DNA of 64,000 nucleotides from Candidatus Omnitrophota bacterium (GTDB lineage Bacteria > Omnitrophota > Gorgyraeia > 2-02-FULL-51-18). The notes under the pieces were generated by a model. That model searched no databases. It was not told the DNA's origin and was given only the letters and a program-made list of their open reading frames with translations. The DNA lies in the NCBI GenBank assembly GCA_016206805.1, contig JACQQX010000016.1, forward strand, positions 13,256 to 77,255, given 5' to 3'. Position 1 is the first letter of the stretch. Every line of letters starts with the position of its first letter. Below are positions 1-58,769 of the stretch, piece by piece. The position numbers were made by a program, and so were the translations under genes.

Positions 1-1277
1 ATGATGGATCGGGCTCCCAGCGCCCGCGGACCAAACTCCATGCGCCCCTGAAACCAGCCGATCACCTTTTCCTGCGCGATCAGCTCCGCCACTCGCCTAG
101 TCAAGCTTCCCTCATCCAGCCGCGTATAAGGAATATGACGCTCTTTTAAAAAAGCTTCGATGGTTTCATTGGAAAACTCAGGCCCCAAATAAGAGCCTTT
201 GAGCGAGTCGGCGGCTTTGGACGCCACACGTTTATTGCCCAACACCTCATACCAGGCAAAAAGGGCCGCGCCCAATGCCCCTCCGGCATCTCCGGCGGCC
301 GGCTGAATCCAGATTTTTTCAAAGATATTTTCCTTCAGGATCTTTCCATTGCCGACGCAATTGAGCGCGACACCGCCAGCCAAACACAAATTCTTCTTGC
401 CGGTGACTTTTCGCGCGTGACGAGCCATGCGGCGCATCACCTCTTCAGTGACATCCTGAACAGAGCGCGCCAAATCCATTTCGCGCTGCGTCAGGTGAGA
501 TTCCGGTTTTCGAGGAGGCCCCCCAAAAAGATCATGAAATTTGGCGTTGGTCATCGTTAAACCGGCGCAATAATTAAAATAATCGAGGTTCAGCTTGAAA
601 GAACCGTCAGCCTTTAAATCCATGAGTTTAGAAAGAATAATGTCTTTGTATTTCGGCTGGCCATATGGCGCCAAACCCATCACTTTGTACTCACCGGAAT
701 TCACCCTAAAACCGGTGTAATAAGTAAAAGCGGAGTACAAAAGCCCCAGCGAGTGGGGAAAGCGAATGTCCATGAGCATTTCCAGATGATTTTGATGACC
801 CACCGCGAGACTGGAAGTGGTCCACTCCCCAACACCATCCATCGTGAGAATGGCCGCCTCATCAAAACCGGAAGGATAAAAAGCCGACGCCGCGTGCGCC
901 TGGTGATGCTCGGGGAAAATGACCTTGCCCTTGAAGCCCAGCTCCTCCTGAATGAGGTCTTTGATCCAAAGCTTCTGTTTGATCCATACGGGCATCGCTT
1001 TGATAAACGAGCGGATGCCTAGCGGCGCGTAAGCCAGATGCGTTTCAAGGATTCTTTCAAATTTGAGAAATGGCTTCTCATAAAAAGCAACCAAGTCCAA
1101 ATCCTTGGAAGCAATCCCCGCCTCGCTCAAACAGTACGCGATGGCTTTATGCGGAAAAGCCGCGTCGTGTTTTTTGCGCGTAAAACGCTCTTCCTGCGCG
1201 GCCGCGATAATCTCACCATCCCGCACCAGACACGCCGCGCTGTCATGATAATAAGCGGAAATGCCCAATATATTCAT
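1..1277 (-). CDS. Carbamoyltransferase (NodU/CmcH family), partial; the C-terminal part lies beyond the window start
   Basis: Reverse-strand translation from the ATG at 1277 begins MNILGISAYYHDSAACLVRDGEIIAAAQEERFTRKKHDAAFP. This is the characteristic N-terminus of NodU/CmcH/TobZ-type carbamoyltransferases. The frame stays open to position 1, and the plus-strand ORFs 753..1328 are antisense shadows. Confidence 0.7.
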   Translation of the reverse strand, partial: MNILGISAYYHDSAACLVRDGEIIAAAQEERFTRKKHDAAFPHKAIAYCLSEAGIASKDLDLVAFYEKPFLKFERILETHLAYAPLGIRSFIKAMPVWIKQKLWIKDLIQEELGFKGKVIFPEHHQAHAASAFYPSGFDEAAILTMDGVGEWTTSSLAVGHQNHLEMLMDIRFPHSLGLLYSAFTYYTGFRVNSGEYKVMGLAPYGQPKYKDIILSKLMDLKADGSFKLNLDYFNYCAGLTMTNAKFHDLFGGPPRKPESHLTQREMDLARSVQDVTEEVMRRMARHARKVTGKKNLCLAGGVALNCVGNGKILKENIFEKIWIQPAAGDAGGALGAALFAWYEVLGNKRVASKAADSLKGSYLGPEFSNETIEAFLKERHIPYTRLDEGSLTRRVAELIAQEKVIGWFQGRMEFGPRALGARSI

Positions 1278-1281
1278 CGTG

Positions 1282-2421
1282 CTACCTTACCATCTTCTCA
1301 AGAGCCGTCAATACTTCATTCGGCGTGATCCCGGACATGCAGGGATGGCCACCCACCCGGCAGATTTCTTCATGACAGGGTGAACAGGAAACCGGGTTCC
1401 TCAAAGTGGTCGTATTCTCCTCGAGAGACTTCCACTGCTCAAAAACATTGGTGCCGCTGTAGAGAAAAAGCGTTGGCACACTCATTGCCGCGGCGATATG
1501 CGCGGGACCTGAGTCAGGACCAATAAAAATACTGAATTTTCTCATTAAAAGGCAAAGCTCCCGAAGGGTGGTCTTGCCCAAAAGAGAAATACCGCGCGGG
1601 CAAACATCAAAAACAGCGCGGCCGACTTTTGGACTGCCTGAACCGACAAAAACGATCCGGTGATCCGGAAAGCGGTCCGCGAAGGACAAAAGAAAAGCCG
1701 TCACGTTTTCTTCGGGCCAGGCCTTAGCGGAAGCGCCTGCGCCCAATTGCAGCCCTACGTACTTTTCGCCGTCCGTTAGTCCCAAACGCCGCACAAGCGA
1801 CGGAAAACCTTTTTCTTCTTCCGCCGAAAAATAAAGCGCGGGCCTAAGCGCCTGAACGCCGATCCCGATCGAACGCAGCAAATCCAGCGCGTGACCGCTC
1901 TCATGCGCGCCCCGCCGGTAAAACACTTCACGCGTCAAAAAAAATCCGCCTCCGGTGACCCCGTAACCGACCCTTTCGGGGATGCCGGCGGCCGCCAATA
2001 AAAAATTTTCCCGAAGATCTCCGCGGAGACTGATGGCCAGATCAATCCCCTTTTTCCGCAGCAACCGCATCAACTGAAAAAAAGAAAACCGGTTGCGCGA
2101 CGCGTACCGATTTTTGGAAAACCATGGGGCGTCATAAGTAATGACTTCGTCAATGAACGGGTTATTTTCAAGCAGTGGAGCGCCCCAGCTGGAGGTCAAA
2201 AAAGTCAGGCGGCACTCCGGAAAATTTTCCTTCACCGCTTTCGGAATAGCCGTGGCCCGGAGAACATCCCCCACGTGATCCATCCGGATCACCAAAACAT
2301 GCCGCGGCGGATAAGGAGAATGCGCTTTTTTAAAAAACCGCCGTGCCAGCGGGTAGCCCGCCGCGTCTAAAACGCCGGCAAGAAAACTCTTGGTTTTTTT
2401 TCGGAAAATATATTGTTTCAT
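1282..2421 (-). CDS. Glycosyltransferase family 9 (ADP-heptose:LPS heptosyltransferase-like)
   Basis: N-terminal RHVLVIRMDHVGDVL and C-terminal GPDSGPAHIAAAMSVPTLFLYSGTN motifs are typical of GT9 heptosyltransferases (RfaF/RfaC/RfaQ family). Confidence 0.7.
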   Translation of the reverse strand: MKQYIFRKKTKSFLAGVLDAAGYPLARRFFKKAHSPYPPRHVLVIRMDHVGDVLRATAIPKAVKENFPECRLTFLTSSWGAPLLENNPFIDEVITYDAPWFSKNRYASRNRFSFFQLMRLLRKKGIDLAISLRGDLRENFLLAAAGIPERVGYGVTGGGFFLTREVFYRRGAHESGHALDLLRSIGIGVQALRPALYFSAEEEKGFPSLVRRLGLTDGEKYVGLQLGAGASAKAWPEENVTAFLLSFADRFPDHRIVFVGSGSPKVGRAVFDVCPRGISLLGKTTLRELCLLMRKFSIFIGPDSGPAHIAAAMSVPTLFLYSGTNVFEQWKSLEENTTTLRNPVSCSPCHEEICRVGGHPCMSGITPNEVLTALEKMVR

Positions 2422-2424
2422 CGG

Positions 2425-3156
2425 TCATCTTCCGGGCTTTCTTGCGAAAATCGCCAGCGAACCGGCGATCTCCCTCACCAGAGGCACGGTTTCCATCCAG
2501 GATCCGATCTGCTCGGCGGGACGCACCAAAGCGCCGGGGATCCAGGGATGCAAAAAATCAAAAGGCGTGATTGAAATATCCTGAAAACCTTTTTGCTTTA
2601 AAAACCGTTTCATCGGCCACTTGAAAAATGCGGTTTCATCGGGAGTGTCCCCCATCAAACGTTTGATAAACGGAATATTTTTTTGAATCATGATTTGGGG
2701 GTTGAGCATATTGGGTTCACAAAAAGCGATCACGCCGCCGGGCTTTAGCGTGCGCCAAATCTCGGCAAAAGCGGGCTCAAGGTCCAGATGATGCAGAACG
2801 CGGACTCCAACTACCGCATCGAATGACTCCATTTCATAAGGCAGCGCTTCCACGTCGCAAACACGAAAATCGGCGGCAGCGCCACAGCGCTCCGTTGCTT
2901 TTTGAAGCAAATCAGCCGACAAATCAATCGCGTGCAAACGCGCGCCTGAGCGAAGAAAAACTTGTGAGAAAAAACCGGTGCCGCAACCGATTTCAAGCGC
3001 CTGCTGCCCCGCGCGAAGGCCCGTTCGGCTGACAATCCATTCCGCGCGGCGCATGGAGCCTTTATAACCGGCATCCGTACCGGAATTCCAATAAAACTCC
3101 GGATGATGCAATATTTTTTTAGCGTGCTCGAGTTCCTGAACTTTATTTTGCGGCAT
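2425..3156 (-). CDS. Class I SAM-dependent methyltransferase
   Basis: SAM-binding motif I LEIGCGTGFFS followed by acidic motif II (RLHAIDLS); Methyltransf_11/25-like. Confidence 0.75.
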   Translation of the reverse strand: MPQNKVQELEHAKKILHHPEFYWNSGTDAGYKGSMRRAEWIVSRTGLRAGQQALEIGCGTGFFSQVFLRSGARLHAIDLSADLLQKATERCGAAADFRVCDVEALPYEMESFDAVVGVRVLHHLDLEPAFAEIWRTLKPGGVIAFCEPNMLNPQIMIQKNIPFIKRLMGDTPDETAFFKWPMKRFLKQKGFQDISITPFDFLHPWIPGALVRPAEQIGSWMETVPLVREIAGSLAIFARKPGR

Positions 3157-3159
3157 GCC

Positions 3160-4668
3160 TTAGTCGGTGTCCGTACCGAAATTAAAAGCATGATTGCGGA
3201 TCAGGCGAAGTCCCGAGCGGACATAATTCAAAAAAATCCGGGGAGAACGGATATCTTTCAGGGTATTGATGATGTAGGAAGGGCGAAGATAAAAACCCAG
3301 AAGTGCTTTTTTTCGGTAACCGATAAGCTCCTCGGTACTCATGGACAAGGTGCGGACAATCGGACGGGCATAATCCCCTTTGGATAGGTTCTTGTCGTCG
3401 AAAAGATTCATTTCCTTGGCCAGACGGTAATATTCAGTTCCGGGCAGCGGATAAGCAATATTAAAATCCAGGAAACTGGGATTGAGTTTTTTGGCAAAAT
3501 CAATGGTCTGCTCCACCGTCTGCCGGGTTTCCCAGGGAAGCCCAATCAGAAAAAGACCATAGGTTTTAATGCCATATTTTTTGCATAACGCTATCGCGCG
3601 CTCGGCGTCCTCCAGCTTGGCGCGCTTTTTCATCTTGTCGAGCATTTCCTGGTTGCCGCTTTCGATACCGAAACCGATAACCCAGCAGCCGGCTTTCTTC
3701 ATCCACTCCAACCGCTTTTCGCTGATGGTGTCCACACGGCTGTTGCACCCCCAGCGGATCGAAAGATTGCGCTCGATAATCATCCGGCACAAATCCATCA
3801 CCCATTTTTCATCCCAGGTAAACGTGTCCGCGCGGAAAAAGAAGTTACGGATGTTGTGACGCTCAACGCATTCGGAAATTTCATCCACAATATTTTTGGG
3901 AGAACGGACTTTAAGCTTATAGCCGGAGGCGATGGTGACCGCGCAATAGATACACTGATGAGGACAGCCGCGGCCCGTATTGATCATCGTGATCGGCTCT
4001 CCGGTGTCGGGCGCCAGATACAAACTATTATTTAAAAGATGACGCGCCGGAAAGGGAAGCGTATCCAAATGCTCCACTTCGATATAAGGCCGGTCCGCAT
4101 TTCGAGCCGGCCGGCCATCCGCGCGATACGCCAAACCCAGAATCTCTGAAAAATCTTTTTTCTCGGCAATCTCGACAATCGCATGCTCCGACTCACCGCG
4201 GATCACCAGGTCCAGCTCCGGGTTCTGCAGGATAATCTCATCGTCTTTTGAAGAAAAATGGGCGCCCTTGGCGACTGTCACGATCGAGGAGTTGATTTTT
4301 TTGGCGATGCGGCAGGCAGCCAAATCATTTTGCACGGTAGGCGTGGTTACACTGACCAAAAGAATGTCCGGCATAAAAAGGGCAATGTCCCGCTCCACCT
4401 GCTCCCATTCGGCCTTGGACGCCGCGTAGTCGGCTATTTTGCATTGGATCTGGAGCTGCTCCAGCATCGCGGCCATGTAAGCCAGATCCAGTGGCGCGCG
4501 ATTCGGCTGGGCCGTCATCCCCTCCACGGGAGCTTGGCAGCGGTCATCCCGCATATAAACTCCCGTCGGCGGATAAATCAGGAAAACTTTTGAAGCGCGC
4601 TTGGCGATGGAGGAAGGGCTAGTCGACAAAACGGTATTTGATGAGGGTACAAACGGCTTCAAGTCCAT
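3160..4668 (-). CDS. B12-binding domain-containing radical SAM protein (class B radical SAM, putative C-methyltransferase or related)
   Basis: N-terminal cobalamin-binding-like segment (DILLVSVTTPTVQ...VTVAKGAHFS) followed by a CxxxCxxC radical SAM cluster motif (GRGCPHQCIYCAV). 502 aa. The true start may be downstream of M1, which overlaps the next gene by 50 nt. Confidence 0.75.
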   Translation of the reverse strand: MDLKPFVPSSNTVLSTSPSSIAKRASKVFLIYPPTGVYMRDDRCQAPVEGMTAQPNRAPLDLAYMAAMLEQLQIQCKIADYAASKAEWEQVERDIALFMPDILLVSVTTPTVQNDLAACRIAKKINSSIVTVAKGAHFSSKDDEIILQNPELDLVIRGESEHAIVEIAEKKDFSEILGLAYRADGRPARNADRPYIEVEHLDTLPFPARHLLNNSLYLAPDTGEPITMINTGRGCPHQCIYCAVTIASGYKLKVRSPKNIVDEISECVERHNIRNFFFRADTFTWDEKWVMDLCRMIIERNLSIRWGCNSRVDTISEKRLEWMKKAGCWVIGFGIESGNQEMLDKMKKRAKLEDAERAIALCKKYGIKTYGLFLIGLPWETRQTVEQTIDFAKKLNPSFLDFNIAYPLPGTEYYRLAKEMNLFDDKNLSKGDYARPIVRTLSMSTEELIGYRKKALLGFYLRPSYIINTLKDIRSPRIFLNYVRSGLRLIRNHAFNFGTDTD

Positions 4669-5356
4669 GTCTCCAGTTTATCTTTTTCCCCTGCTCATGG
4701 GTGCGGGGAGTATAAGTGATGGCTACTTCCTGAATTGCGTAACCCGCTTTTCTGACTTTTGCGGTGAATTCAGGACAAAACTCAAAACCCCGGCATCGAA
4801 GCCGGAATTTCTCTAATACCTTTCTTCTAAATGCTTTATAACAAGTCGCTTCGTCCGTTATGTTAGCAGAGTAGAGGCGGTTTGCCAAGCCGTTTAAAAG
4901 CAGAACGCCTAAAAAGTGGTGCAGATAAACGACTTCTTCATGGCCTCCCAAAAAGCGGTTTTTAAACCAATGTTGGATAAACGTCCATGGATTCAAATCT
5001 TTGTAACGTGAGCCATAAACCACGTCTATCGCGGGATTTTCAAAAAACCGGAGGATCTTCAGATAATCATTCGGATCATATTCCAGATCGGCGTCCTGGA
5101 TAATGAGAATATCCCCGGCGGCATGAGGCAGTGCTGTCCGGATAGCGCTCCCCTTTCCCAGATTGCGCTCATGATAAATGACTTTTAAATTTTTATATTT
5201 CCCATCGATCTCTTGGCGAAGATATTGGCGGGCGTCTTCGGAAGAACCGTCATCGACGAGTATTACTTCTTTCTCGACCGGCACGGCCATCACGCGGCGC
5301 AGCGATTCGGCGACCAGCGTTTTCTCATTGTAATGGGGAATAATGACGCTTAGCAT
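4619..5356 (-). CDS. Glycosyltransferase family 2 (DPM1-like polyprenyl-phosphate sugar synthase type, soluble)
   Basis: LSVIIPHYNE...ILVDDGSSED...IQDADLEYDP (DxD) motifs; 245 aa without C-terminal TM helices. Confidence 0.7.
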   Translation of the reverse strand: MLSVIIPHYNEKTLVAESLRRVMAVPVEKEVILVDDGSSEDARQYLRQEIDGKYKNLKVIYHERNLGKGSAIRTALPHAAGDILIIQDADLEYDPNDYLKILRFFENPAIDVVYGSRYKDLNPWTFIQHWFKNRFLGGHEEVVYLHHFLGVLLLNGLANRLYSANITDEATCYKAFRRKVLEKFRLRCRGFEFCPEFTAKVRKAGYAIQEVAITYTPRTHEQGKKINWRHGLEAVCTLIKYRFVD

Positions 5357-5367
5357 GTTCGCTGATT

Positions 5368-6417
5368 CTAAAGGCTTTGGCGGAATATCTCAATCATCAT
5401 TCTTGCCGTCTTCTGCCAGGTAAAGGCTTGAGAACGGCGCCAGGCGGCATCAGCCAGTTCGCGCCTTAAACCGGCATTGGAATAAAATAAAGACATTTGG
5501 CCGGCAATACTTTCGGGATTCAGCGGGTCGGCATACAAAGCGGTGTGCCCCGCCACCTCCGGCAATGAAGAAGAATCGGAAACAATGCCGCTCAAACCAC
5601 AACGCATGGCCTCCAGAACCGGCAAACCAAACCCTTCATAGATAGACAAAAAAACATAGCCCACCGCCTGATTGTACAATTGATTTAAATCCGGATCGGC
5701 CACATACCCCAAAAGACGCACTTCTTTTTCCAAATCAAGCTCTCGGATCAAACGCCTGATGTCGTTTTCAGCGCCACCGGCTTTGCCGGCTAAAATAAGC
5801 ATCACATCCGAAGGGGTTTCTTTTTTGAATAGGCTAAAAGCGCGCAACAGATTGGGGATATTTTTTCTGGGCTCAAGCGTTCCCACATGCAGAAAAAAGG
5901 GCCGTTCGGATACGCGGGCACCCAATGTATTTTCTTTGGAAAACGCGCGGTTGGGCGCCAAAGGGACCACATGGATAGAATCCGCGGGCCTTTTCAAAAG
6001 ACGGATGATGTCCCGCCGCGTGGATTCGGAGCTGGCCACGACGACCTTCGCGCGTTTGACGCAGTGGGGCAACCACCAGGACCAATAAAAACGCGCGGCA
6101 GGCGGAAGATTGCGCGGATAAAGAACGCCGATGAGATCGTGCACGGTCACGACTTGAGGAATAGTGGAAAAAAAGGCCGGCGCAAAACCCGGACTAAAAA
6201 GAAGGTCTGCCCCACGTGACCCTAGCCTCAGAGGAATTTCCACACTTTCCCAAAGAATACGCGCGGCAGCGCTTAAATCACGGGCACGAGCGGTGGTTAA
6301 ACAATTGAGCTCAATGGAGGGGTCTTCCTGTCCGAGAGCTTCAACGAGGTTTTCGGCATAAACGCCTATCCCCGTTTTATTTCCCTGAGCGGACTGAAAA
6401 TCAACCGCGATTCTCAT
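5368..6417 (-). CDS. Glycosyltransferase family 4 (GT-B, retaining)
   Basis: C-terminal EGFGLPVLEAMRCG (E-x7-E-like GT4 signature) and GTLEPRKN motif. Confidence 0.75.
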   Translation of the reverse strand: MRIAVDFQSAQGNKTGIGVYAENLVEALGQEDPSIELNCLTTARARDLSAAARILWESVEIPLRLGSRGADLLFSPGFAPAFFSTIPQVVTVHDLIGVLYPRNLPPAARFYWSWWLPHCVKRAKVVVASSESTRRDIIRLLKRPADSIHVVPLAPNRAFSKENTLGARVSERPFFLHVGTLEPRKNIPNLLRAFSLFKKETPSDVMLILAGKAGGAENDIRRLIRELDLEKEVRLLGYVADPDLNQLYNQAVGYVFLSIYEGFGLPVLEAMRCGLSGIVSDSSSLPEVAGHTALYADPLNPESIAGQMSLFYSNAGLRRELADAAWRRSQAFTWQKTARMMIEIFRQSL

Positions 6418-7532
6418 TCAATTACCGACAAAATTTTTTTCGCGCTGTGACCGTCTCCGAAGGGATTTTTCCAGCTTCTATGTTTACGCACCATTCGTCT
6501 GGCTAGTCCAGCGATCCGCGAAGGATTGTAACCCGCCAACATATTTGCGCCAACTTTTAACGTCTCCGGCCGCTCGGTTGTTGTCCGTAGCGTGACGCAA
6601 GGGACCCCCAAAATACAGGCCTCCTCCTGAACGCCTCCCGAATCCGTGAGAATCAACGACGCGTTTTTTTCAAGAAGCAGAAACTCCAGAAACCCGACCG
6701 GTTTTATCGGATAAATCTGTTGCGGAATTTTCAACCCAAAGCGTTCCAACTGTTTCAATGTTCTGGGATGAACGGGGAAAATAACCGGCATTTTTGATTC
6801 GATAGCCACCCGACCGATTCCTTCTAAAACCGCCGCGAGCCGCTGGGCATCATCAACGCTTTCCTGGCGATGCAAAGTCATCAGACAAAAACCTTTTTCC
6901 AGCGGCAACTTTAAATCCCTTAAATCAATATCCCGTTTGGCGATTTTCAAGTTTTCCTGCACGGCATCCACGATAGTATTGCCGGTTAACGTAATGTTGT
7001 GCGCTGGGATCCCTTCTTTCAAAAGAATGCGCTTGGCCAAAGGTGTCGGCGCGAATAGGTAATGAGACATGTGGTCCGTGAGAATGCGATTCACCTCTTC
7101 GGGCATATTGCGGTCATAGCTTCTGAGACCGGCCTCCACATGGCCTAATTGGATGGCGGGCAGTTTGGCGGTCGCCAGAGCGCCGGCCAAAACGCTGTTG
7201 GTGTCTCCCTGAACCAGCACGGTAGAAGGTTTTTCGGCGGTAAGGATTTTTTCAATCTCGGTCATCATAAAAGCGGTCGGACCGGTGAGACTTCCCTGCG
7301 CGGAAACATTGGTCGGTATTTTTAATTGAAATTGCGGCTGAGGAAGCTCCAGCTGCTCAAAAAAGAGGCTGTCCATCTCAAAAGAATAATGCTGTCCGGT
7401 ATGAATCATAAAATAGGGTTTACGCGAATGTTCCAAGAGACGAATCACCGGGCTAAGCTTGATAATTTCAGGCCGAGTACCGAATACTAACGCAATCCGT
7501 TTTTTCACGAAACACCCTTCCCCTTTTCCCAC
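6414..7532 (-). CDS. wecB: UDP-N-acetylglucosamine 2-epimerase (non-hydrolysing, WecB/MnaA type)
   Basis: RIALVFGTRPEIIKLSPV, HTGQHYS, GHVEAGLRSYD and NTIVDAV motifs match Epimerase_2 family non-hydrolysing enzymes. Confidence 0.8.
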   Translation of the reverse strand: MGKGEGCFVKKRIALVFGTRPEIIKLSPVIRLLEHSRKPYFMIHTGQHYSFEMDSLFFEQLELPQPQFQLKIPTNVSAQGSLTGPTAFMMTEIEKILTAEKPSTVLVQGDTNSVLAGALATAKLPAIQLGHVEAGLRSYDRNMPEEVNRILTDHMSHYLFAPTPLAKRILLKEGIPAHNITLTGNTIVDAVQENLKIAKRDIDLRDLKLPLEKGFCLMTLHRQESVDDAQRLAAVLEGIGRVAIESKMPVIFPVHPRTLKQLERFGLKIPQQIYPIKPVGFLEFLLLEKNASLILTDSGGVQEEACILGVPCVTLRTTTERPETLKVGANMLAGYNPSRIAGLARRMVRKHRSWKNPFGDGHSAKKILSVIE

Positions 7533-8266
7533 CGCTTGGCTAATTTCACAAATTCATAATAAGCGCTCAGAAAGCTAAAGAAAAAACCTTCCATCCCGTC
7601 CAGAATCCCCGCGCGCCAAAAAACCCTGTCTAAAAAAACTGCCGGCGGCCGCCAAAAAAGCTGCCGCTTTGAAAATGGCCTTCCCTGCTCCATCCATAAA
7701 GCCGCTTCCAGAGCCGTATACTGATTAAGCTTTTTCATATAATCCGTCATCCGTTCGGTGGAGTGATGCCATAACACTCCGGATAGACAAGGCGTTTTTT
7801 CCGGCCAGGCAATGGCCTCATGCACCAAACCTGAAAAAATCGCCTTCTCTTTTTGAACCAGCCTGAGCGGCCTGTCATTCCCGCTCACGCCATGCTTCAT
7901 CCATCGGCCAAAAATCCTATTTTTACGGTGAACGCGATAAGCGCTGGAGGCCGCGCGCGCAATGGTCTGGCGGATGGACTGGGCAAGCTCAGGGCTTACC
8001 CGCTCATCCGCGTCGACGAATAAAAGCCATTGGTTGGAGGCTTTTTGGGCCGCAAAATTCTTTTGAGACGCGTAGTCCGTAAACGTCCGGCTATAAACCG
8101 CCGCGCCTAAACGCCGCGCGATTTCAAGCGTGGCGTCCCGGCTTCCTCCATCCACTATCACTTTTTCATCACAAAAATCAAGCGCCTTGAGACAGGTTTC
8201 AAGATTGCGCTCTTCGTTGAGTGTAATAATAACCGCTGAAAGACCCATACCGCTAGACCACTCCAA
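7505..8266 (-). CDS. Glycosyltransferase family 2 (LPS-core WaaE/KdtX-like)
   Basis: LSAVIITLNEERNL...VDGGSRDAT...FVDADE motifs. The likely start is M7 (8248). Confidence 0.7.
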   Translation of the reverse strand: MEWSSGMGLSAVIITLNEERNLETCLKALDFCDEKVIVDGGSRDATLEIARRLGAAVYSRTFTDYASQKNFAAQKASNQWLLFVDADERVSPELAQSIRQTIARAASSAYRVHRKNRIFGRWMKHGVSGNDRPLRLVQKEKAIFSGLVHEAIAWPEKTPCLSGVLWHHSTERMTDYMKKLNQYTALEAALWMEQGRPFSKRQLFWRPPAVFLDRVFWRAGILDGMEGFFFSFLSAYYEFVKLAKRWEKGKGVS

Positions 8267-9185
8267 AAATTTGACGATCAGGCCGGCTTGTCAATAAACC
8301 GGATTTCTTTAAACCCTGCCGGCGCCGGTACACGCGAGGCAAATGCGGCAGTGCCTGCCAAAACCCCAGAAACAATTCCGGCTTTCCGCTGAAAAGGGAA
8401 TAAGCCAGTCTAAACGGCAGCCAGAAAAAAAACCTTAAAAAAGAGTCCCTGTCCCCCAGGTTCTTCCACATGAATAAAAATGTATTCCGCGCGTTGATCA
8501 CTAGCGTCCGATGGACCCCAAAAGCGCGATGAAAGCTGGTTCCCCCCTCATGCCACGCGCGGCTGGCCGGCTCATAAAGACAAACCCAGCCTTTTTTCTG
8601 GGCGCGAAAACAAATATCGGCATCCTCCAGCCGGCCCGGAAGATAAAGATCGTCATAGCCGCCCAACTCCAGAAACTTTTTCCGGTCAAAAGCCCCAAAC
8701 CCTCCCTGGAATGTGAGCCCGGGACTGTCTTTTTCTTTTTCATACCCCGGATATAACGCATACGCCCAAAAAATACCAAAACGCAGCCGGCCACGGGTTT
8801 TATTTCCTTCGTAATCGCCGGTTTTCAAGGAAAGGCATTGCGGTGTCACAAAAAAGACATCTTTCGAGTTTAAAAACGGCTGGACCAGCGGATCGACAAA
8901 ACCCGCATCGACACGGATGTCGTTATTCATCAAAATGAGAATCTCGTCGGGGAGACCCGTGGCGGCTTCATTGTAGGCGCAAAGCACACGGTTTTGCGCC
9001 ATCGGCATCCATCCCACCGAATTAAAACCGGCGACCACCGACTGACTGGCGTCGGTACTGGCATTGTCCACTACGCTGACGCGGCAATCATGCCGGGAAT
9101 TTTTAACAGCCTGGCAATAAGACGGCAGATACTTTCTCAACAGCTCCTCGCCGTTAAAATTCAATATCAGAATATGGACTTTCAC
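8253..9185 (-). CDS. Glycosyltransferase family 2
   Basis: KVHILILNFNGEELL...VVDNASTDAS...NNDIRV motifs of GT2 (GT-A fold). Confidence 0.7.
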   Translation of the reverse strand: MKVHILILNFNGEELLRKYLPSYCQAVKNSRHDCRVSVVDNASTDASQSVVAGFNSVGWMPMAQNRVLCAYNEAATGLPDEILILMNNDIRVDAGFVDPLVQPFLNSKDVFFVTPQCLSLKTGDYEGNKTRGRLRFGIFWAYALYPGYEKEKDSPGLTFQGGFGAFDRKKFLELGGYDDLYLPGRLEDADICFRAQKKGWVCLYEPASRAWHEGGTSFHRAFGVHRTLVINARNTFLFMWKNLGDRDSFLRFFFWLPFRLAYSLFSGKPELFLGFWQALPHLPRVYRRRQGLKKSGLLTSRPDRQIFGVV

Positions 9186-9937
9186 GGACGAACCTCAGGG
9201 TAAAACCGGTCGATTTTTTGAGTGACCACCGCGTGAGCGATAATGAGAATCCATACCGCCGTTGAAGAAGCCGCGTAATAAATCAATAGGGGCTCCAATA
9301 GTCTTTCCTGAAATAAAAAAATGCCTAATGTCAAAACCGGCAGAAAAACGGGAAACGTCACAGTTTCATGCCAGATGGAAAAAAACTTTTTTAAAAAAGG
9401 CCGTGAAGCGGCCTTATTCTCCTGCGATTTTTGCCCATAGGTATCCGGTGCTGTGATCCGTATCCTTCCCTGACGCACGCGCTGCAATATCACCATGGAT
9501 TCGCAAAAAGGAATTACCGAAAGCATCAGCGACCCATAAAAAGCCGTAAAACCCGCCGCCACCCACCCCAAACCCACTCCCAGCCCTAAAAAAGTAAATG
9601 GTGGGACAATGGCATTGGCTATCGTGTCAAAAAAAAGTCCGCTGGCGCAGGTAATGCCTTGAGCCCGGGCCACTTCGCCGTCCACATGATCCAGCAAATA
9701 CCAGCCGTTCACAAAAATAATCCCCAAAAACCATTGCCCTTGGGACAAAAACCATGCCCCCGCTAGACCGGAAACGATTGAGGCAAAGTTCACCCAAAAC
9801 GGCGAAACTGAAAACGGGACCAGAGTGGCCGTGATGTAAATAGAAATGCGCCGCATCACATGACGCCCATAAAAAGAATCCTTATTCCGTCGGGGTCCTT
9901 GCAGCTTTTCTCTCGAGAGTGCGGCCTGCTTCAGCAC
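9182..9937 (-). CDS. CDP-alcohol phosphatidyltransferase family membrane protein
   Basis: DHVDGEVARAQGITCASGLFFDTIAN matches the CDP-OH P-transferase signature D-G-x2-A-R-x7-8-G-x3-D-x3-D; multiple hydrophobic helices. Alternative start M28 (9856). Confidence 0.6.
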   Translation of the reverse strand: MLKQAALSREKLQGPRRNKDSFYGRHVMRRISIYITATLVPFSVSPFWVNFASIVSGLAGAWFLSQGQWFLGIIFVNGWYLLDHVDGEVARAQGITCASGLFFDTIANAIVPPFTFLGLGVGLGWVAAGFTAFYGSLMLSVIPFCESMVILQRVRQGRIRITAPDTYGQKSQENKAASRPFLKKFFSIWHETVTFPVFLPVLTLGIFLFQERLLEPLLIYYAASSTAVWILIIAHAVVTQKIDRFYPEVRP

Positions 9938-11469
9938 GAATCATTCTCCTTCATCTTTGAACAAACAAAACGATAAAACGCTTTGATAGATTCGCCGGCC
10001 GTTTGGCTGCCGGTTTTTATCACAAAATCAGGTTTCTGTGGCGGCTCATAAGGGCTTGCCGGCGAAAAACCGATAAGATCCGGCAATTCATTCCGCTTGG
10101 CCTTGGCATACAATCCTTTCACGTCGCGGCCCATCACGCATTCCAGATTGGCGTCAAAAAAGACCTCATAAAACGAGCCCGGTAAAAGCTCCCGGGCCGC
10201 TTGCCGCGAAACCCGGTAAGGCGAAATGATGGGGACCAGAATAACATCGAACTCCGCGCGCCTGGACGCGCAAAGTGAAGCGATGCGTTCATTGTTTTCC
10301 AGAATTTCTTCCCGGGCAAAGCCCAGATCCTTATGAAAATACTTTCTAATCTCATCTCCGTCCAGCACCAACACGGAACGGCCGCTTTTCTCTAGCAGAG
10401 CCTGGATGCCGGCGGCCACGGTTGTTTTACCCGAACCCGAAAGACCGGTAAACCAAAAAACAGGGGCGTGCCGGTAAATGCGTGAAAAATCAAAACCTTT
10501 TTCAAACTCGCGGATCAGCCTCACCATCATCTCCGCGCATCCGACCGGATCTTTTCCGATGGCCGTTTCCGCGGCCAGCACCAGTCCATCCGCGCCATCA
10601 ATCAAAGTATTGATGACGTCATTGACCTCGGCCCGCGTGGGGCCGGGAGACACCGTCATGGATTCCAGGAGATTGGTGGCCACATAAACTTTTTTCCGGG
10701 CTTTTTTGGCCTGGCGGATAATGTATTTTTGAAGCCAAGGGATCCGCTCGATAGGCTCTTCGCGCGACAAATCCCCACGGTCAATCAAAAGCGCGTCGGC
10801 CTTGGCGGAGATGTCATCCAAATGCACCAATCCATTGCGGCATTCTATCTTGGCGATCACAAAAGTATCGGGATCGCAATGCTTTCGGACTTCATCCACA
10901 TCGGAGGCGTGATTGGCAAAAGAAAGCGCCACATGACGCACGCCCATTTTCCGCCCGATCGCTAGCGCTTGAAGGTCCTTCGGCGTCATCACCGGCAGGT
11001 CAATCGGCCGCTCCACCGTCACGGCTTTATTCCGCCCGATTTTGCCGCCGTTGATCACTTTTAAAATCAGCTTGCCGCCTTCGCGCCTCACCACCTGAAC
11101 CAGCACGGCATTAAAATCAATGCTGATCCTGTCTCCCGCTCTCAACTGCGGGCCAATGCCCTCCGGATAAAAATTAAACTGACGGGCATCTCCCGGCACC
11201 GGTTCTTCGGGAATAGTCACGAGACTGTCTTTTTCTAATACCACTTCCGCCGCGGCAAAATTTCCAGTACGGATCTGGGCGCCTTCGGTGTCCAGACAAA
11301 TAGGCTTGGAGGTATGGCTTCGGATCTGCCGGATCACTTTTTCAACATCCTCGGCTTTAGTATGCGATAAATTGATGCGAAAGAGCCCGACGCCCAACTC
11401 ATCCAAACGCCGGATGACCTCCGGACCCATCGAAGAAGGGCCTAGCGTGCAAAGAATTTCTTTATTCAT
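9931..11469 (-). CDS. Fusion protein: pyruvate-kinase-like barrel domain + adenylyl-sulfate (APS) kinase-like P-loop domain
   Basis: N-terminal half is PK-like (NKEILCTLGPSS...LFRINLSHT...ICLDTEGAQIRTG...MTVSPGPTRAEVNDVINTLIDGADGLVLAAETAIGKDP). C-terminal half is CysC-like (FWFTGLSGSGKTT...LDGDEIR...ISPYRVSRQAARE...EVFFDANLECVMGRDVKGLYAKA). The start is set at MNKEIL, forming an ATGA-type overlap with the upstream flippase; the ORF could extend to 11580. Confidence 0.7.
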   Translation of the reverse strand: MNKEILCTLGPSSMGPEVIRRLDELGVGLFRINLSHTKAEDVEKVIRQIRSHTSKPICLDTEGAQIRTGNFAAAEVVLEKDSLVTIPEEPVPGDARQFNFYPEGIGPQLRAGDRISIDFNAVLVQVVRREGGKLILKVINGGKIGRNKAVTVERPIDLPVMTPKDLQALAIGRKMGVRHVALSFANHASDVDEVRKHCDPDTFVIAKIECRNGLVHLDDISAKADALLIDRGDLSREEPIERIPWLQKYIIRQAKKARKKVYVATNLLESMTVSPGPTRAEVNDVINTLIDGADGLVLAAETAIGKDPVGCAEMMVRLIREFEKGFDFSRIYRHAPVFWFTGLSGSGKTTVAAGIQALLEKSGRSVLVLDGDEIRKYFHKDLGFAREEILENNERIASLCASRRAEFDVILVPIISPYRVSRQAARELLPGSFYEVFFDANLECVMGRDVKGLYAKAKRNELPDLIGFSPASPYEPPQKPDFVIKTGSQTAGESIKAFYRFVCSKMKENDSC

Positions 11470-12959
11470 ACGATTTCCTTTCGTGCTCCCCAAAAACGTC
11501 TGCGCACCGCTCCAAAAAAATCTGTCTGCCGGTTTAATCTCCAAAGAAAAGGAGCATAAATGGCCGCGAAAATCAGCCATTGCAAAAGCGACTGCCCAAA
11601 TGACCGCTCCGCATCCGGAAAAAACGCTTTAACAATAAAGAGACAAGCCGTCATGAATAAAAACTTTCCGAGCTTGATGCCGTAATCCCGGAGACATTCT
11701 CCCAACGGAGTGATCACGCGGCAAGCGATGAAATAAGTCGCCGTGAAACGGACAAAAACCACAAAAGTCGTGGCCATGCCCACTCCAACCAGGCCCCAGC
11801 CATTCTGAAGAACCAAAAAATTGGATACAAAAGCCAGAAAGCAGACTCCGGCCATGATGGGCACCAAAATCATTTGTTTGCGCATCACCGTGATGAAATA
11901 ACTATACGGATGCGCCAAGGCCAGAAAATAGGCGCTAACGATCAAAAACCGCATCGGCTCAATGCTTCCCATGTAATCCGGCAGCACGATGCGCGCGAAA
12001 TAAGGCACCAAAAACCAACCCCCGGCGATCAAAAGCGGCATGATGGCGCTGAAAGCATCCGATGATTTGGATAGATAGCCTTTTAAATCCCGCAGATTTT
12101 CTGTTTCACCAAAGCGCTGATGAAAATTGGGGATCAAGACAACGCCGATTGAATTGGGAACCGTGCCCAGATAAGTGTAAGTCAAAATGGCGACGCTATA
12201 AATACCCAGCGCCTCCAAACCCAGCATTTTGGCGATCATGAGTTTATCAATGGTCAAAAAAAGAGCGCCCGTCAACCCTACCAGCAGCAACGGAGAACCG
12301 TAACGGATGAGTGAAATAATTTTTTCACGTTCCAAGCGCCACGCAAAAACAAAGCGGTGATGCGCGAGAATATAGACGATATTGAATAGAAAGCTGAAAC
12401 ACATGGCCCACATAAACCCATAAATTTGAAAACGATAAGACAAGACTGCCACCAACACCGCGTTGATGATAGAGGAGTAAATCATCTGCCGGGACGCCAA
12501 ACCAAAAAGCTTGTATCCCCTCAGAAAAGAAATATATAAATTATTCAACCGCTGCAGGATGACCAATGCCGACATAAAAATCAAACCATAGAAAACGACT
12601 TCCGATAAATGCGCGCGGCTCCAGAAAGCATAAACCAGAAGAGCCGCCGCCGAAATAACCGCCGTCAGGGCTGAGAAACTAAAAATCGTATCCGCGGTTT
12701 CCGTGATTTTGTCATCGTCTCCCTTCCCCTGATAATAGGGAATTTCCCGGGAAATCGCCTCCGCCACTCCAAAGGTGGTGTACGCCGAATAAACCAGGAT
12801 GATTTGCAGAAGCGACCATAAACCCATCTGGGTTGGCCCCAAAAAACGCCGGCTTAAAATTGCCGCAACCAGCGTAACCAGCTGAGTGATGATAGAAGCG
12901 GCTGAGTATAGCCCGGCGTCCAGAATAACTTTTTCTCTTTCGACCTGACGGGCATTCAT
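11466..12959 (-). CDS. Polysaccharide biosynthesis protein / Wzx-like oligosaccharide flippase (MOP superfamily)
   Basis: 497 aa with about 12 predicted hydrophobic helices throughout, and a topology and size typical of Wzx/RfbX flippases in glycan loci. Confidence 0.6.
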   Translation of the reverse strand: MNARQVEREKVILDAGLYSAASIITQLVTLVAAILSRRFLGPTQMGLWSLLQIILVYSAYTTFGVAEAISREIPYYQGKGDDDKITETADTIFSFSALTAVISAAALLVYAFWSRAHLSEVVFYGLIFMSALVILQRLNNLYISFLRGYKLFGLASRQMIYSSIINAVLVAVLSYRFQIYGFMWAMCFSFLFNIVYILAHHRFVFAWRLEREKIISLIRYGSPLLLVGLTGALFLTIDKLMIAKMLGLEALGIYSVAILTYTYLGTVPNSIGVVLIPNFHQRFGETENLRDLKGYLSKSSDAFSAIMPLLIAGGWFLVPYFARIVLPDYMGSIEPMRFLIVSAYFLALAHPYSYFITVMRKQMILVPIMAGVCFLAFVSNFLVLQNGWGLVGVGMATTFVVFVRFTATYFIACRVITPLGECLRDYGIKLGKFLFMTACLFIVKAFFPDAERSFGQSLLQWLIFAAIYAPFLWRLNRQTDFFGAVRRRFWGARKEIV

Positions 12960-21037: not shown

Positions 21038-21690
21038 TTTTTAGAAATAAAATTTTTAAGGATGCGTAAACCCATTTCCCCGCTGCGTTCCGGATGAAAT
21101 TGGCAACCCTGAATATTATCTTGTAACAACACCGAGCAAAAACGGTCCTGCCCATATTCGGTTTGAGCCAACCAGGCCTGAGCGCTCTCCGGATAAACGC
21201 AATAGGAGTGAACAAAATACATGCAAGGTGCTTCATCCAGCCCATTCAAAAGCGTATCGCGCCAATTCCCGCCCTTGGAAGCGAGGGTCAGCCGATTCCA
21301 GCCGATTTGCGGGATTTTATAAGACTGCCCATTGTTGGGCGCCTGGAAACGACGCACTTTTCCGGCAATCAAATTTAAACCATCGTGAGAACCGCCCTCT
21401 TCGGAATGCGTCATCAAAAGCTGCATGCCCAGGCAAATCCCAAGAACGGGACAGCCCTCAGCCGCACGCTTGCGGATCGCGCTCACCAAGCCGCGCTCAT
21501 TCAAATACCGCATGCCCGCCTCAAAAGCACCCACGCCGGGCAGAATCAGTTTTTTAGCGGATAAAATATCTTCCGGTTTTCCGGAGATCACCGAAGACGC
21601 TCCTAAAAGATCAAGGGCCCGCTGGACATTAAAAAGATTGCCCACGCCGTAATCGATGATCACCGCGTCCGGGCTTTTAGCGTTTGGCAT
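21034..21690 (-). CDS. Imidazole glycerol phosphate synthase HisH-like glutamine amidotransferase (WbuY-type)
   Basis: AVIIDYGVGNLFNVQRAL...ILPGVGAF and a class I GATase Cys-His-Glu context (GICLGMQLL, H..E). The ORF may start at 21723. Confidence 0.8.
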   Translation of the reverse strand: MPNAKSPDAVIIDYGVGNLFNVQRALDLLGASSVISGKPEDILSAKKLILPGVGAFEAGMRYLNERGLVSAIRKRAAEGCPVLGICLGMQLLMTHSEEGGSHDGLNLIAGKVRRFQAPNNGQSYKIPQIGWNRLTLASKGGNWRDTLLNGLDEAPCMYFVHSYCVYPESAQAWLAQTEYGQDRFCSVLLQDNIQGCQFHPERSGEMGLRILKNFISKK

Positions 21691-32081: not shown

Positions 32082-32087
32082 AGGCTC

Positions 32088-58766: not shown

Positions 58767-58769
58767 CGT

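Follow-up and report, generated by a model that had tools for sequence, protein, structure and literature searches.

A segment of four genes, encoding a small GT2 glycosyltransferase, a radical SAM enzyme with a B12-type domain (rSAM), a class I SAM-dependent methyltransferase (MT) and a GT9 glycosyltransferase, is conserved as a functional module among Omnitrophota and other, related uncultured bacteria. The sugar-tailoring module is real and uncharacterised; its reading as a source of C-methylated and O-carbamoylated sugars on an LPS-core-like acceptor is only partly supported, with C-methylation no better supported than other radical chemistry on sugars. The module lies in a locus for cell-surface sugars near the start of the window, i.e., the whole 64-kb stretch of DNA that was analysed, in the following setting.

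3-1277, minus strand: carbamoyltransferase, truncated (N-terminal 425 aa; runs off the window start)
1282-2421, minus strand: GT9 (379 aa)
2425-3156, minus strand: class I SAM-dependent MT (243 aa)
3160-4668, minus strand: B12-domain radical SAM enzyme, rSAM (502 aa)
3943-3966, minus strand: CxxxCxxC cluster motif of rSAM (C235, C239, C242), invariant in 89 homologues
4168-4494, minus strand: Rossmann-type B12-binding domain of rSAM, residues 59-167 (PF02310, 52.6 bits)
4336-4353, minus strand: S106-V-T-T-P-T111 loop, invariant, inside the B12-binding domain
4528-4557, minus strand: loop Y38-M-R-D-D-R-C44-Q-A-P47, between Rossmann strand 1 and helix 1
4619-5356, minus strand: small GT2 of the DPM1/AglJ/ArnC/PpgS type (245 aa)
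5368-6417, minus strand: GT4 glycosyltransferase, between WecB and GT2 (PF00534, 111.3 bits; syntenic in locus L002)
6414-7532, minus strand: WecB, non-hydrolysing UDP-GlcNAc 2-epimerase (TIGR00236, 373.7 bits; cut-off 210.15)
7505-8266, minus strand: second small GT2 (253 aa; PF00535, 56.5 bits)

The module and its conservation

According to the list of open reading frames and six-frame translation, all genes of the locus are on the minus strand and nearly touch. The GT2 gene at 4619-5356 overlaps the start of rSAM by 50 nt, and the remaining gaps are 3-4 nt. The annotated start of rSAM, an ATG at 4668, is backed by a preceding GGAG. The GT2, rSAM, MT and GT9 genes thus arranged are one translationally coupled operon segment. 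The gene calls of the first-pass annotation stand, as reading frames, translation and Pfam domains all fit, the Pfam scores being judged far above chance. The supposed cluster end of the first-pass annotation coincides with the window start, which cuts the carbamoyltransferase gene; in L002, the closest syntenic locus, glycan genes run on past GT9.

Eighty loci related to rSAM were retrieved using the motifs of the family. The commonest neighbour of rSAM is a small GT2, lying within 300 bp in 29 of the 80 loci and within 3 kb in 43, an adjacency that is frequent without being universal, and the overlap of the two genes is kept in L002 (-46 nt) and L003 (-40 nt). The MT is a conserved partner of rSAM: it is directly 3' of rSAM, or fused to it, in 10 of the 15 clade loci at 55% identity or more, the fusions being L057/P0050 (730-731 aa) and P0038 (751 aa). 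GT9 is linked to rSAM in 5 of the 80 loci; in L002, L006 and L009 its gene follows that of the MT, and in L007 the two are fused. WecB adjoins the module in these four loci and in L003, and homologues of the second GT2 (42-46% identity) are found upstream of it in L002, L003, L006 and L007. Contigs of the same size recur across the match lists of rSAM, MT and GT9, and a protein identical to GT9 is encoded in a Candidatus Omnitrophica MAG (contig of 85,234 bp). In many related loci, paralogous B12-rSAMs are arrayed in tandem.

Among cultured organisms, the best relative is found on plasmid 1 of Lawsonia intracellularis, where an rSAM-MT pair is clustered with genes for a SIS isomerase, a GHMP kinase and a HAD-IIIA phosphatase, a set that looks like a heptose-nucleotide pathway. 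The plasmid carries five methyltransferases.

Placement of the radical SAM enzyme

The class B architecture assigned earlier was borne out by an HMM search, with Radical_SAM (PF04055) at 89.5 bits (GA 29.5) and B12-binding (PF02310) also above its GA of 32.1. In the AF2 model (pLDDT 90.6), the Rossmann domain has five strands and five helices, and the fold matches found by Foldseek are AprD4, MgmA, TsrM, OxsB and TokK, with CysS also strong. The family profile aligns the Rossmann region with the cobalamin domains of TokK, OxsB, CysS and QCMT, pairing Trp76 of TokK with P110. A T-(S/T)-T-P loop is common to rSAM, HpnJ and BchE, and the cobalamin dependence of BchE is experimental (PMC13598231). 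From the PF02310 score, the five-strand fold, the profile alignment and the T-T-P loop shared with BchE, it is predicted that the Rossmann domain of rSAM probably holds cobalamin.

The loop from Y38 to P47 is specific to the family and almost invariant in the 89 homologues (clade consensus YMRDDRCQxP). Its Arg43 is common to HpnJ and the Lawsonia rSAM, Cys44 is found in neither, and the loop is missing from BchE. The invariant Cys44 may act as a hydrogen-atom donor.

No cut-off of a curated family (NCBIfam-type models) is reached by rSAM. Its best scores are 255 bits for HpnJ (cut-off 577.6), 173.5 for BchE and 142.6 for AprD4 (cut-off 500). All 20 family members tested have HpnJ as the top model (best E 6.2e-85) and BchE as the second, ahead of every methylase model, and none of the 20 reaches a family cut-off. 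The comparison with methylases was made with the models PhpK, HpnR, KedN5, TsrM and MgmA. All five models score below HpnJ and BchE and under their own cut-offs, PhpK (140 bits) and MgmA (127 bits) falling in the range of AprD4. The model for a ladderane-type lipid rSAM gives 118 bits, and that for ApyD, a RiPP enzyme, 140 bits.

In a rough neighbour-joining tree, the clade with the RCQ motif (82 tips) is sister to a group of HpnJ, the Lawsonia rSAM and paralogues from Sumerlaeota. This clade is large and uncharacterised, all its members coming from lineages without cultured representatives (Omnitrophota, Sumerlaeota, Nitrospirota, Planctomycetes, DPANN and others), and the nearest characterised relative of rSAM is HpnJ. 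Function is not transferable from HpnJ, however, since the identity of about 28% is near that to BchE (26%) and to the Lawsonia paralogue (29%). Among solved structures, the best match for rSAM is AprD4, both by sequence and by fold.

The partner enzymes

The GT2 adjacent to rSAM scores 113.8 bits with Glycos_transf_2 (PF00535). Its best NCBIfam matches are AglJ, ArnC and PpgS, no curated cut-off being reached, and its best PDB matches are Dol-P-Man synthase (5mlz), ArnC and GtrB. It is without a membrane anchor, unlike GtrB and ArnC with their helices, and is not specifically HpnI-like; an HpnK-like deacetylase is absent. The MT (Methyltransf_11, 85.2 bits) reaches no curated family cut-off and has BchM among its matches (45.7 bits).

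GT9 enzymes are GT-B transferases that act on nucleotide sugars, typically ADP-heptose. The GT9 of the module, of GT-B type (Glyco_transf_9, PF01075, 84.7 bits; GA 22), has 3tov and WaaF (1psw) as its best PDB matches, and the similarity to both is full length. Nevertheless, it is under the cut-offs of the models for heptosyltransferases I, II and III and RfaQ (106.9 against 134.6 at best), so that it is rejected as an orthologue of WaaC, WaaF or WaaQ. It differs from these also in that it is fused to an MT in a relative and that no genes for Kdo, lipid A, the LPS core or nucleotide-linked heptose were found in the 64-kb window. The acceptor resembling an LPS core, which had been proposed from the presence of GT9, is therefore unsupported.

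A possible pathway and its alternatives

The whole might be read, tentatively, as a route through a lipid-linked amino sugar. WecB, from which the HexNAc of the module probably derives, would provide UDP-ManNAc, or else UDP-GlcNAc would be used directly. The DPM1/ArnC-like GT2 would attach the amino sugar to a carrier lipid, polyprenyl phosphate being the likeliest, whereupon rSAM, splitting SAM at the CxxxCxxC cluster, would remove a hydrogen at an unactivated carbon of the sugar and, with its probable cobalamin, bring about a non-methylating change of the HpnJ/AprD4 type: a ring contraction or rearrangement, or perhaps a dehydration or deoxygenation. Cys44 may donate a hydrogen atom. The MT would methylate a heteroatom, either in the product or, on the model of BchM preceding BchE, already in the substrate, and GT9 would add a sugar to the tailored residue or transfer it. 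The non-methylating step is suggested by HpnJ as top model in 20 of 20 members, by the sister position in the tree and by AprD4 as the best match in sequence and fold. The lipid carrier is suggested by the closeness of the GT2 to synthases of polyprenyl-phosphate sugars and by the precedent of HpnJ, which acts on glucosamine that a GT2 has joined to a lipid (PMC9204698). A route that is lipid-linked throughout is hard to square with the use of nucleotide sugars by GT9 enzymes.

No known system matches the module throughout. In the synthesis of bacteriohopanetetrol cyclitol ether (Burkholderia, Mycetohabitans), hpnI, hpnJ and hpnK adjoin one another, and as here, a GT2 is directly upstream of a B12-domain rSAM. 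HpnJ is the best-scoring curated family for rSAM and its sister group in the tree, and the two have in common the T-T-P loop and, between strand 1 and helix 1, a loop with Arg. It differs in the low identity, the score below cut-off and the lack of Cys44, which is specific to the RCQ clade, and the partners differ too: a class I MT and GT9 here, with no HpnI-like GT2, HpnK or hopanoid gene. AprD4, which with AprD3 forms the radical SAM 1,2-diol dehydratase of apramycin and tobramycin synthesis (PDB 6fd2), likewise acts on an amino-sugar ring, the glucosamine of paromamine, and resembles rSAM by phmmer (8.5e-35), profile (1.3e-44) and Foldseek (3.4e-29; TM 0.72-0.82). However, its N-terminal domain fails to align with the rSAM profile, with which true cobalamin domains do align, its score of 143 bits is far from 500, and an AprD3-like reductase is not adjacent here. 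AprD4, the closest solved relative, binds no cobalamin (PMC12931638), and this counts against the mechanism.

In anaerobic bacteriochlorophyll synthesis, BchM and BchE offer a class I MT and a B12-rSAM acting in turn, and the likeness extends to BchE as second-best family, to the match of BchM with the MT and to a T-P loop; but the substrate is a porphyrin, BchE is without the RCQ loop, and photosynthesis genes are absent here. The GT2 is closest to the enzymes of polyprenyl-phosphate sugar systems (Dol-P-Man synthase; ArnC/ArnD/ArnT; GtrB/GtrA/Gtr; PpgS; archaeal AglJ/AglP), from which it differs in having no membrane helices and in reaching no curated cut-off, with no GT-C or flippase adjacent to the module. 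We know of no rSAM step in systems of the ArnC, GtrB, PpgS or AglJ type.

C-methylated sugars had been suggested in the first-pass annotation. The class B architecture on which the suggestion drew stands; the methylase step is weakened by the better fit to HpnJ and BchE, the tree and the fold of AprD4. Should rSAM be a cobalamin-dependent C-methyltransferase like GenK, MoeK5 or Fom3, with the MT adding an O- or N-methyl group, the glycan would gain a C-methyl sugar. We consider this somewhat unlikely. It would accord with the cobalamin-type Rossmann domain, with the helices C-terminal to a TIM barrel and the context of sugar or glycolipid tailoring that those methylases share with rSAM, with the strong fold matches to MgmA, TsrM, TokK and CysS, with the PhpK and MgmA scores and with the abundance of methyltransferases in related loci, such as the five on the Lawsonia plasmid. 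Most characterised class B enzymes are methylases (PMC9204698, PMC13598231), and likeness to HpnJ is compatible with methylation, since published similarity networks cluster HpnJ with the C-methylases Fom3 and MoeK5 (PMC9204698). On the other hand, all methylase cut-offs are missed, and the top two families for each tested member, HpnJ and BchE, are not methylases; the clade is sister to HpnJ, and a dedicated class I MT, at times fused, already methylates. Moreover, an invariant cysteine of active-site type is, to our knowledge, foreign to cobalamin-dependent radical methylases, and C-branching has a route of its own in the same locus.

It is less probable still that rSAM and MT modify a nucleotide sugar, possibly heptose or a heptose-like extended hexose, that serves as the donor for GT9, the GT2 being a mere neighbour. 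The succession of MT and GT9 in the window and three other loci, their fusion in L007, the preference of GT9 enzymes for nucleotide sugars and the sugar genes beside the Lawsonia rSAM-MT pair would all be explained. But heptose-pathway genes are absent from the 64-kb window, GT9 is linked in 5 of 80 loci against 43 for the GT2, the Lawsonia enzyme, a paralogue, falls outside the RCQ clade, and the known sugar-acting relatives HpnJ, AprD4 and GenK use glycosides rather than NDP-sugars (in part PMC9204698). Very improbable is a lipid substrate (polyprenyl or membrane lipid, as in ladderane or GrsA-type proposals) or a peptide, with incidental glycan neighbours: the ladderane-type and ApyD scores and the tandem arrays, as in lipid and RiPP clusters, favour it, but the partners conserved with rSAM are glycosyltransferases, WecB and an MT fused in one case to GT9, the window showed neither a precursor peptide nor genes of lipid synthesis, and HpnJ and AprD4, closest by profile, tree and fold, act on amino-sugar rings.

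The carbamoyltransferase and the wider locus

The truncated gene encodes a carbamoyltransferase of the NodU/CmcH/TobZ/GdmN type, matching Carbam_trans_N (PF02543; 340.8 bits, E 1.5e-101) and the first 29 positions of Carbam_trans_C (PF16861), the C-terminal catalytic domain being beyond the window start. Its matches in PDB, strong over the N-terminal Kae1-like domain, are GdmN (3.8e-62), TobZ (1.6e-49) and NovN. With the NodU equivalog model, whose cut-off is 1000, it scores 70 bits and so does not count as a NodU equivalog. A carbamoyltransferase lies within 10 kb in only 2 of the 80 rSAM loci, and conversely, the 80 closest carbamoyltransferase loci include any GT9 in 3, a distant rSAM in 3 and an MT in 2. 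Linkage fails from either side. The gene is best read as a separate, strain-specific tailoring gene, co-transcribed here but outside the conserved module, and the O-carbamoylated sugars once attributed to the cluster are plausible in this strain only.

The locus also carries a ThDP-dependent, yersiniose-like route to C-branched sugars. In the same window, two further sets of GT2 with MT follow a repeated theme of GT2, MT and PMT-type GT-C, and five PMT-type GT-C enzymes are present.

Gene content at the start of the window

The minus-strand genes at the start of the window are packed as in an operon: the GT2 glycosyltransferase gene overlaps the start of the radical SAM gene by 50 nt, and the remaining junctions are gaps of 3-4 nt. 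The ATG at 4668, with GGAG just upstream, backs the start taken for the B12-domain radical SAM protein (rSAM). ORF calls and Pfam matches returned the same genes that the first-pass annotation had listed.

Genes at the start of the window, with Pfam scores (GA, gathering threshold)
3-1277, minus: carbamoyltransferase, first 425 residues, running off the window start; Carbam_trans_N 340.8 bits
1282-2421, minus: GT9 glycosyltransferase; Glyco_transf_9 PF01075 84.7 bits (GA 22)
2425-3156, minus: class I SAM methyltransferase (MT); Methyltransf_11 85.2 bits
3160-4668, minus: rSAM, 502 residues; Radical_SAM PF04055 89.5 bits (GA 29.5) and B12-binding PF02310 52.6 bits (GA 32.1)
4619-5356, minus: GT2, 245 residues, next upstream of rSAM; Glycos_transf_2 113.8 bits

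The N domain of the carbamoyltransferase is complete, and 29 of the 170 Carbam_trans_C positions lie inside the window. An exact 44-nt search of metagenome contigs for sequence beyond the window start gave no match, and exact matches to rSAM and MT came only from a 7-kb Logan contig, itself inside the window. The glycan genes of the closest syntenic locus run on past GT9 with a GT4 and an initiating transferase (Bac_transf).

Architecture of rSAM

The CxxxCxxC cysteines of rSAM (C235, C239 and C242) are unchanged across 89 homologues. An AlphaFold2 model made with these homologues (pLDDT 90.6, pTM 0.89) shows a Rossmann domain with five strands and five helices, then a TIM-barrel core and a helical bundle at the C-terminus, an arrangement that matches the 'class I' layout of TokK, OxsB, TsrM and QCMT (PMC12931638). 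When the model was compared by Foldseek with the PDB, AprD4 came first (E 3.4e-29, TM 0.72-0.82), followed by MgmA/QCMT, TsrM, OxsB, TokK and CysS.

The radical SAM core is nearest AprD4 in sequence as well. In a profile comparison the N-terminal domain lines up with the cobalamin domains of TokK, OxsB, CysS and QCMT, not with the N-terminal domain of AprD4. Trp76 of TokK, its lower-axial residue, aligns to Pro110 of rSAM, inside an invariant S-V-T-T-P-T loop. The lower-axial residue of TokK has been named as a tryptophan (PMC8992657). The T-T-P loop is common to HpnJ (TSTPSF) and BchE (AITPMI), and BchE is known from experiment to depend on cobalamin (PMC13598231). That rSAM holds the loop together with a cobalamin-dependent enzyme hints that it too may use cobalamin, a hint that is only suggestive. 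Class B enzymes bind cobalamin base-off/His-off, with no sequence signature, and relatives can lose the cofactor: AprD4, which of the solved relatives is the closest, binds no cobalamin (PMC12931638).

The first-pass annotation had called rSAM a class B enzyme and had made the call depend on alignment of the cobalamin domain. With PF04055 and PF02310 both above threshold and the alignment holding, the assignment appears to stand, because the N-terminal domain aligns with true cobalamin domains and shares the T-T-P loop. The additional invariant cysteines C267, C294 and C328 were judged unlikely to form an auxiliary Fe-S cluster: the secondary-structure map of the model puts them either in outer helices or at the barrel bottom.

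Placement among radical SAM subfamilies

rSAM reached the cut-off of no curated family model. The comparison with methylases took in the models for PhpK, HpnR, KedN5, TsrM, MgmA and Sden_1168.

Scores of rSAM against curated family models
HpnJ (TIGR03471): 255 bits, cut-off 577.6
BchE (TIGR02026): 173.5 bits, cut-off 481.35
AprD4 family (NF033070): 142.6 bits, cut-off 500
PhpK: 140.2 bits, cut-off 600
MgmA: 127.2 bits, cut-off 360
Sden_1168: 110.5 bits, cut-off 575
HpnR: 76.9 bits, cut-off 650
KedN5: 73.9 bits, cut-off 700
TsrM: 38 bits, cut-off 500

HpnJ ranked first and BchE second in 20 of 20 diverse family members, the best match (E 6.2e-85) falling below the HpnJ cut-off. In a simple and crude neighbor joining tree of 130 sequences, for which authentic HpnJ and BchE were taken from annotated plasmids, the rSAM family forms a clade of 82 tips whose sister group comprises HpnJ, the radical SAM protein of a Lawsonia intracellularis plasmid, and Sumerlaeota paralogues. 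A loop between Rossmann strand 1 and helix 1, Y-M-R-D-D-R-C-Q-x-P (residues 38-47; the RCQ loop), is nearly invariant and marks the family. The loop arginine is common to HpnJ and the Lawsonia enzyme, the cysteine is specific to the family, and BchE lacks the loop.

The nearest characterised relatives of rSAM are non-methylating enzymes, two of which, HpnJ and AprD4, act on amino-sugar rings. The function of HpnJ cannot be transferred to rSAM, because the two are only about 28% identical. Nor is this an HpnIJK system: the HpnJ score is under its cut-off, GT2 is not HpnI-like (the match is weak and local, 32 bits), and no HpnK homologue was found. A search of the window for hopanoid genes found none. 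The AprD4 system differs in its partners, AprD4 pairing with an AprD3-type reductase whereas rSAM adjoins GT2, MT and GT9.

Distribution and conserved partners

Homologues of rSAM in the protein database number 2,612 at E <= 1e-10, the closest of them 81% identical, with Omnitrophota, Verrucomicrobia, Deltaproteobacteria, Spirochaetes, Woesearchaeota and Nanoarchaeota among the named sources. A scan of species-representative genomes gave 80 loci, all of them in metagenome- or single-cell-derived assemblies of uncultured organisms. These loci were fetched by means of family motifs, their ORFs were called and the products clustered, and profiles made from the window proteins were searched against them.

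Loci, of 80, with a partner gene near rSAM (within 300 bp; 3 kb; 10 kb)
Small GT2: 29; 43; 53
Class I MT: 12; 23; 28
GT9: 1; 5; 9
Carbamoyltransferase: 0; 0; 2

The overlap of GT2 with the start of rSAM is kept in loci L002 (-46 nt) and L003 (-40 nt). In the clade of at least 55% identity, 15 loci have enough flank, and 10 of these have MT directly 3' of rSAM or fused with it; six loci of a clade near 50% identity have the order rSAM-GT2-MT. GT9 follows MT in L002, L006 and L009 and lies 2.3 kb upstream of rSAM in L078; in L007 the two are fused into a protein of 690 residues. Fusions of rSAM with MT (P0050, from L057, and P0038) have 730-751 residues. The fusions tie rSAM, MT and GT9 together. 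Contigs of the same size (153156, 38078, 182666, 8449) recur in the hit lists of all three, an indirect sign that their relatives sit on shared contigs. The UDP-GlcNAc 2-epimerase gene wecB, found nearby in the window (6414-7532), adjoins the module in five close loci.

What emerges is a conserved, uncharacterised sugar-tailoring module whose rSAM is a variant within a known enzyme class; the first-pass reading of these genes holds in part. Our literature search found no characterised B12-domain radical SAM enzyme in O-antigen, polyprenyl or heptose pathways, nor any description of the clade, though such reports may exist.

Other arrangements were seen among the loci. Two to five tandem paralogous B12-rSAM genes, mutually 25-35% identical, occur around position 10000 of each locus in L010, L025, L051, L081 and others, and in L029 a GT4 domain is fused to a B12-rSAM, giving a protein of 880 aa. 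In six loci of Sumerlaeota and unclassified bacterial MAGs (L052, L054, L058, L059, L060 and L064), GT2 is followed by a flavoprotein resembling FAD amine-oxidase/UDP-galactopyranose-mutase and then by an rSAM of the RCQ type; in all of these except L059, a second, HpnJ-like rSAM with a 'YLRDYYCSH' loop comes next. GTP cyclohydrolase I is the gene immediately upstream in other loci from Sumerlaeota. In Nitrospirota and Deferribacteres MAGs (L053, L061, L065, L067, L068, L070, L072, L074 and L075), rSAM has directly upstream of it a conserved protein, about 666 aa long, that matches no Pfam family, and in L067, L068, L070, L072 and L075 a 233-aa GT2 lies downstream.

Partner enzymes

GT2 most resembles AglJ, ArnC and PpgS among NCBIfam models (the best, AglJ, at 75.9 bits against a cut-off of 325), and in the PDB the Dol-P-Man synthase of Pyrococcus (5mlz), ArnC and GtrB. 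Polyprenyl-phosphate sugar synthases (DPM1/ArnC/GtrB/AglJ/PpgS) are its closest group. Theirs is the nearest catalytic domain, but GT2 does not have their membrane helices and reaches no curated cut-off. Among class I methyltransferases, MT is generic.

GT9 is similar over its full length to WaaF and to 3tov, and the first-pass annotation had called it heptosyltransferase-like and suggested an LPS-core-like acceptor. It fell short of every heptosyltransferase equivalog cut-off (II, 106.9 against 134.6; III, 84.4 against 170.2; I, 71.7 against 185.3; RfaQ, 72.4 against 467), and the 64-kb window yielded no genes for Kdo, lipid A or heptose nucleotides. These results lend that reading no support.

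The carbamoyltransferase, a homologue of GdmN, NovN and TobZ, had been read as a source of O-carbamoylated sugars beside the C-methylated ones. It lies within 10 kb of rSAM in just 2 of the 80 loci. In the reverse test, of its 80 closest relatives in metagenomes (59-74% identical), just three had any GT9, three a distant B12-rSAM and two an MT within 8 kb. Membership in the module was rejected from both directions; the carbamoyltransferase gene has its own wide distribution as an independent tailoring gene.

What the module might do

We tentatively put forward, as the likeliest reading but one well short of probable, that rSAM carries out a non-methylating change of the HpnJ/AprD4 type on a lipid-borne HexNAc, which would then pass to MT and GT9. 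WecB would supply UDP-ManNAc, and the small GT2 would load the HexNAc on its lipid carrier. rSAM, probably using cobalamin and possibly with Cys44 as hydrogen donor, would take a hydrogen from the sugar, leading to rearrangement, ring contraction or deoxygenation. MT would methylate a heteroatom, and GT9 would extend or transfer the product.

The first-pass annotation favoured C-methylation instead; that rSAM is a C-methylase of the GenK/MoeK5 type we consider only slightly less likely. Most class B enzymes are methylases, and HpnJ co-clusters with the C-methylases Fom3 and MoeK5 in published networks (PMC9204698, PMC13598231). The class B architecture behind that proposal was borne out, but the nearest characterised relatives of rSAM do not methylate: HpnJ and BchE rank first, and no curated methylase cut-off was reached. 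A plain C-methylase would be a routine addition to the enzyme class.

It is rather unlikely that the clade with the RCQ loop performs an undescribed radical SAM reaction on an amino sugar borne by polyprenyl phosphate. Carbocycle formation or ring contraction, deoxygenation and epimerisation would be the candidates, with Cys44 as hydrogen-atom donor beside the cobalamin and with the adjacent or fused MT and GT9 handing the product on. Tailoring at the level of an NDP-sugar that then feeds GT9 strikes us as improbable; it would accommodate the MT-GT9 fusion, as well as the paralogous rSAM-MT pair on the Lawsonia plasmid, set amid a heptose-looking SIS isomerase, GHMP kinase and HAD-IIIA phosphatase. 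A substrate other than a sugar is very improbable.

There are hundreds of thousands of cobalamin-type radical SAM enzymes, and the characterised non-methylating ones are only a handful; we know of none from ordinary cell-surface glycan assembly. If rSAM rearranges or deoxygenates a lipid-linked amino sugar, the reaction would be new to glycan biosynthesis and its product a new structural element in the envelopes of major uncultured phyla. If the RCQ loop does mark an undescribed reaction, the envelopes of Omnitrophota, Sumerlaeota, Nitrospirota, CPR bacteria and DPANN archaea may contain a widespread class of modified sugars that has gone unseen. The clade, which comprises > 2,600 detectable homologues from uncultured lineages only, brings its own context (GT2, fusion-linked MT, GT9 and WecB), and the module names a four-gene set tractable for heterologous reconstitution.

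The Lawsonia plasmid

The best cultured relative is found on the 27-kb plasmid 1 of Lawsonia intracellularis, an obligate intracellular pathogen (L082; NC_008012, 8023-19220), where a B12-rSAM gene overlaps that of a class I MT. The surrounding genes encode another rSAM, a further four MTs, GT2s and DUF2304 proteins, together with a SIS isomerase, a GHMP kinase and a HAD-IIIA hydrolase, and the whole looks like a heavily tailored heptose-type sugar pathway. We rejected it as an orthologous module and regard it as an analogy, because the MTs are only generically alike (20% identity over 104 residues between that of Lawsonia and that of the window).

The rest of the window

The remaining sequence forms a very large island of glycan genes, including one for a Wzx flippase.

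Features of the glycan island
9182-9937, minus: 251-aa ORF with no Pfam hit at 1e-6; 'DHVDGEVAR' recalls the CDP-alcohol phosphatidyltransferase motif
9931-11580, minus: one ORF, pyruvate-kinase barrel domain fused to an APS-kinase domain
21034-29223, minus: nonulosonic-acid (legionaminic/pseudaminic) type set
29567-35463, minus: MBOAT and AlgX/SGNH-like protein, then a 588-aa protein with an FkbH_N domain
36609-38507, 40852-42591, 43172-44632, 54336-55949 and 55946-57469, minus: five PMT/PMT_2 GT-C enzymes
44629-45615 and 58770-59711, minus: GT2s of GtrB/ArnC size
42462-43217 and 58170-58766, minus: class I MTs
46646-54320, minus: NTP-transferase, 4,6-dehydratase, DegT/E1-like enzyme and SDR
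46646-48521, minus: DmpG-type aldolase and acetaldehyde dehydrogenase
48518-50338, minus: ThDP enzyme

The GT2s and MTs of this list are interleaved with the GT-Cs, giving a repeated pattern of GT2, MT and GT-C over 36609-45615 and 54336-59711 (minus strand). Since the GT-Cs are arranged with these two GT2s and two MTs, which come in addition to those of the module, a theme of GT2 plus MT on lipid-linked monosaccharides seems to recur in this Omnitrophota bacterium.

The genes at 46646-54320 resemble a yersiniose/YerE-type route to a two-carbon-branched deoxysugar, which, if that is what they encode, would be a non-radical source of C-branched sugar within the same locus. Alongside the fused pyruvate-kinase/APS-kinase ORF, to about 18.9 kb, lie Wzx, a HAD hydrolase, a 2-hydroxyacid dehydrogenase, a cytidylyltransferase, and FAA-hydrolase-like and GAPDH-like proteins; the set from 9931 onwards may make an acidic or phosphorylated substituent by an unusual pathway. 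The nonulosonic-acid set comprises NeuB, a PglD-like acetyltransferase, a CBS-DegT aminotransferase, a cytidylyltransferase, and a HisH/HisF-like amidotransferase and cyclase. The MBOAT and AlgX/SGNH-like pair is consistent with O-acylation of a glycan.
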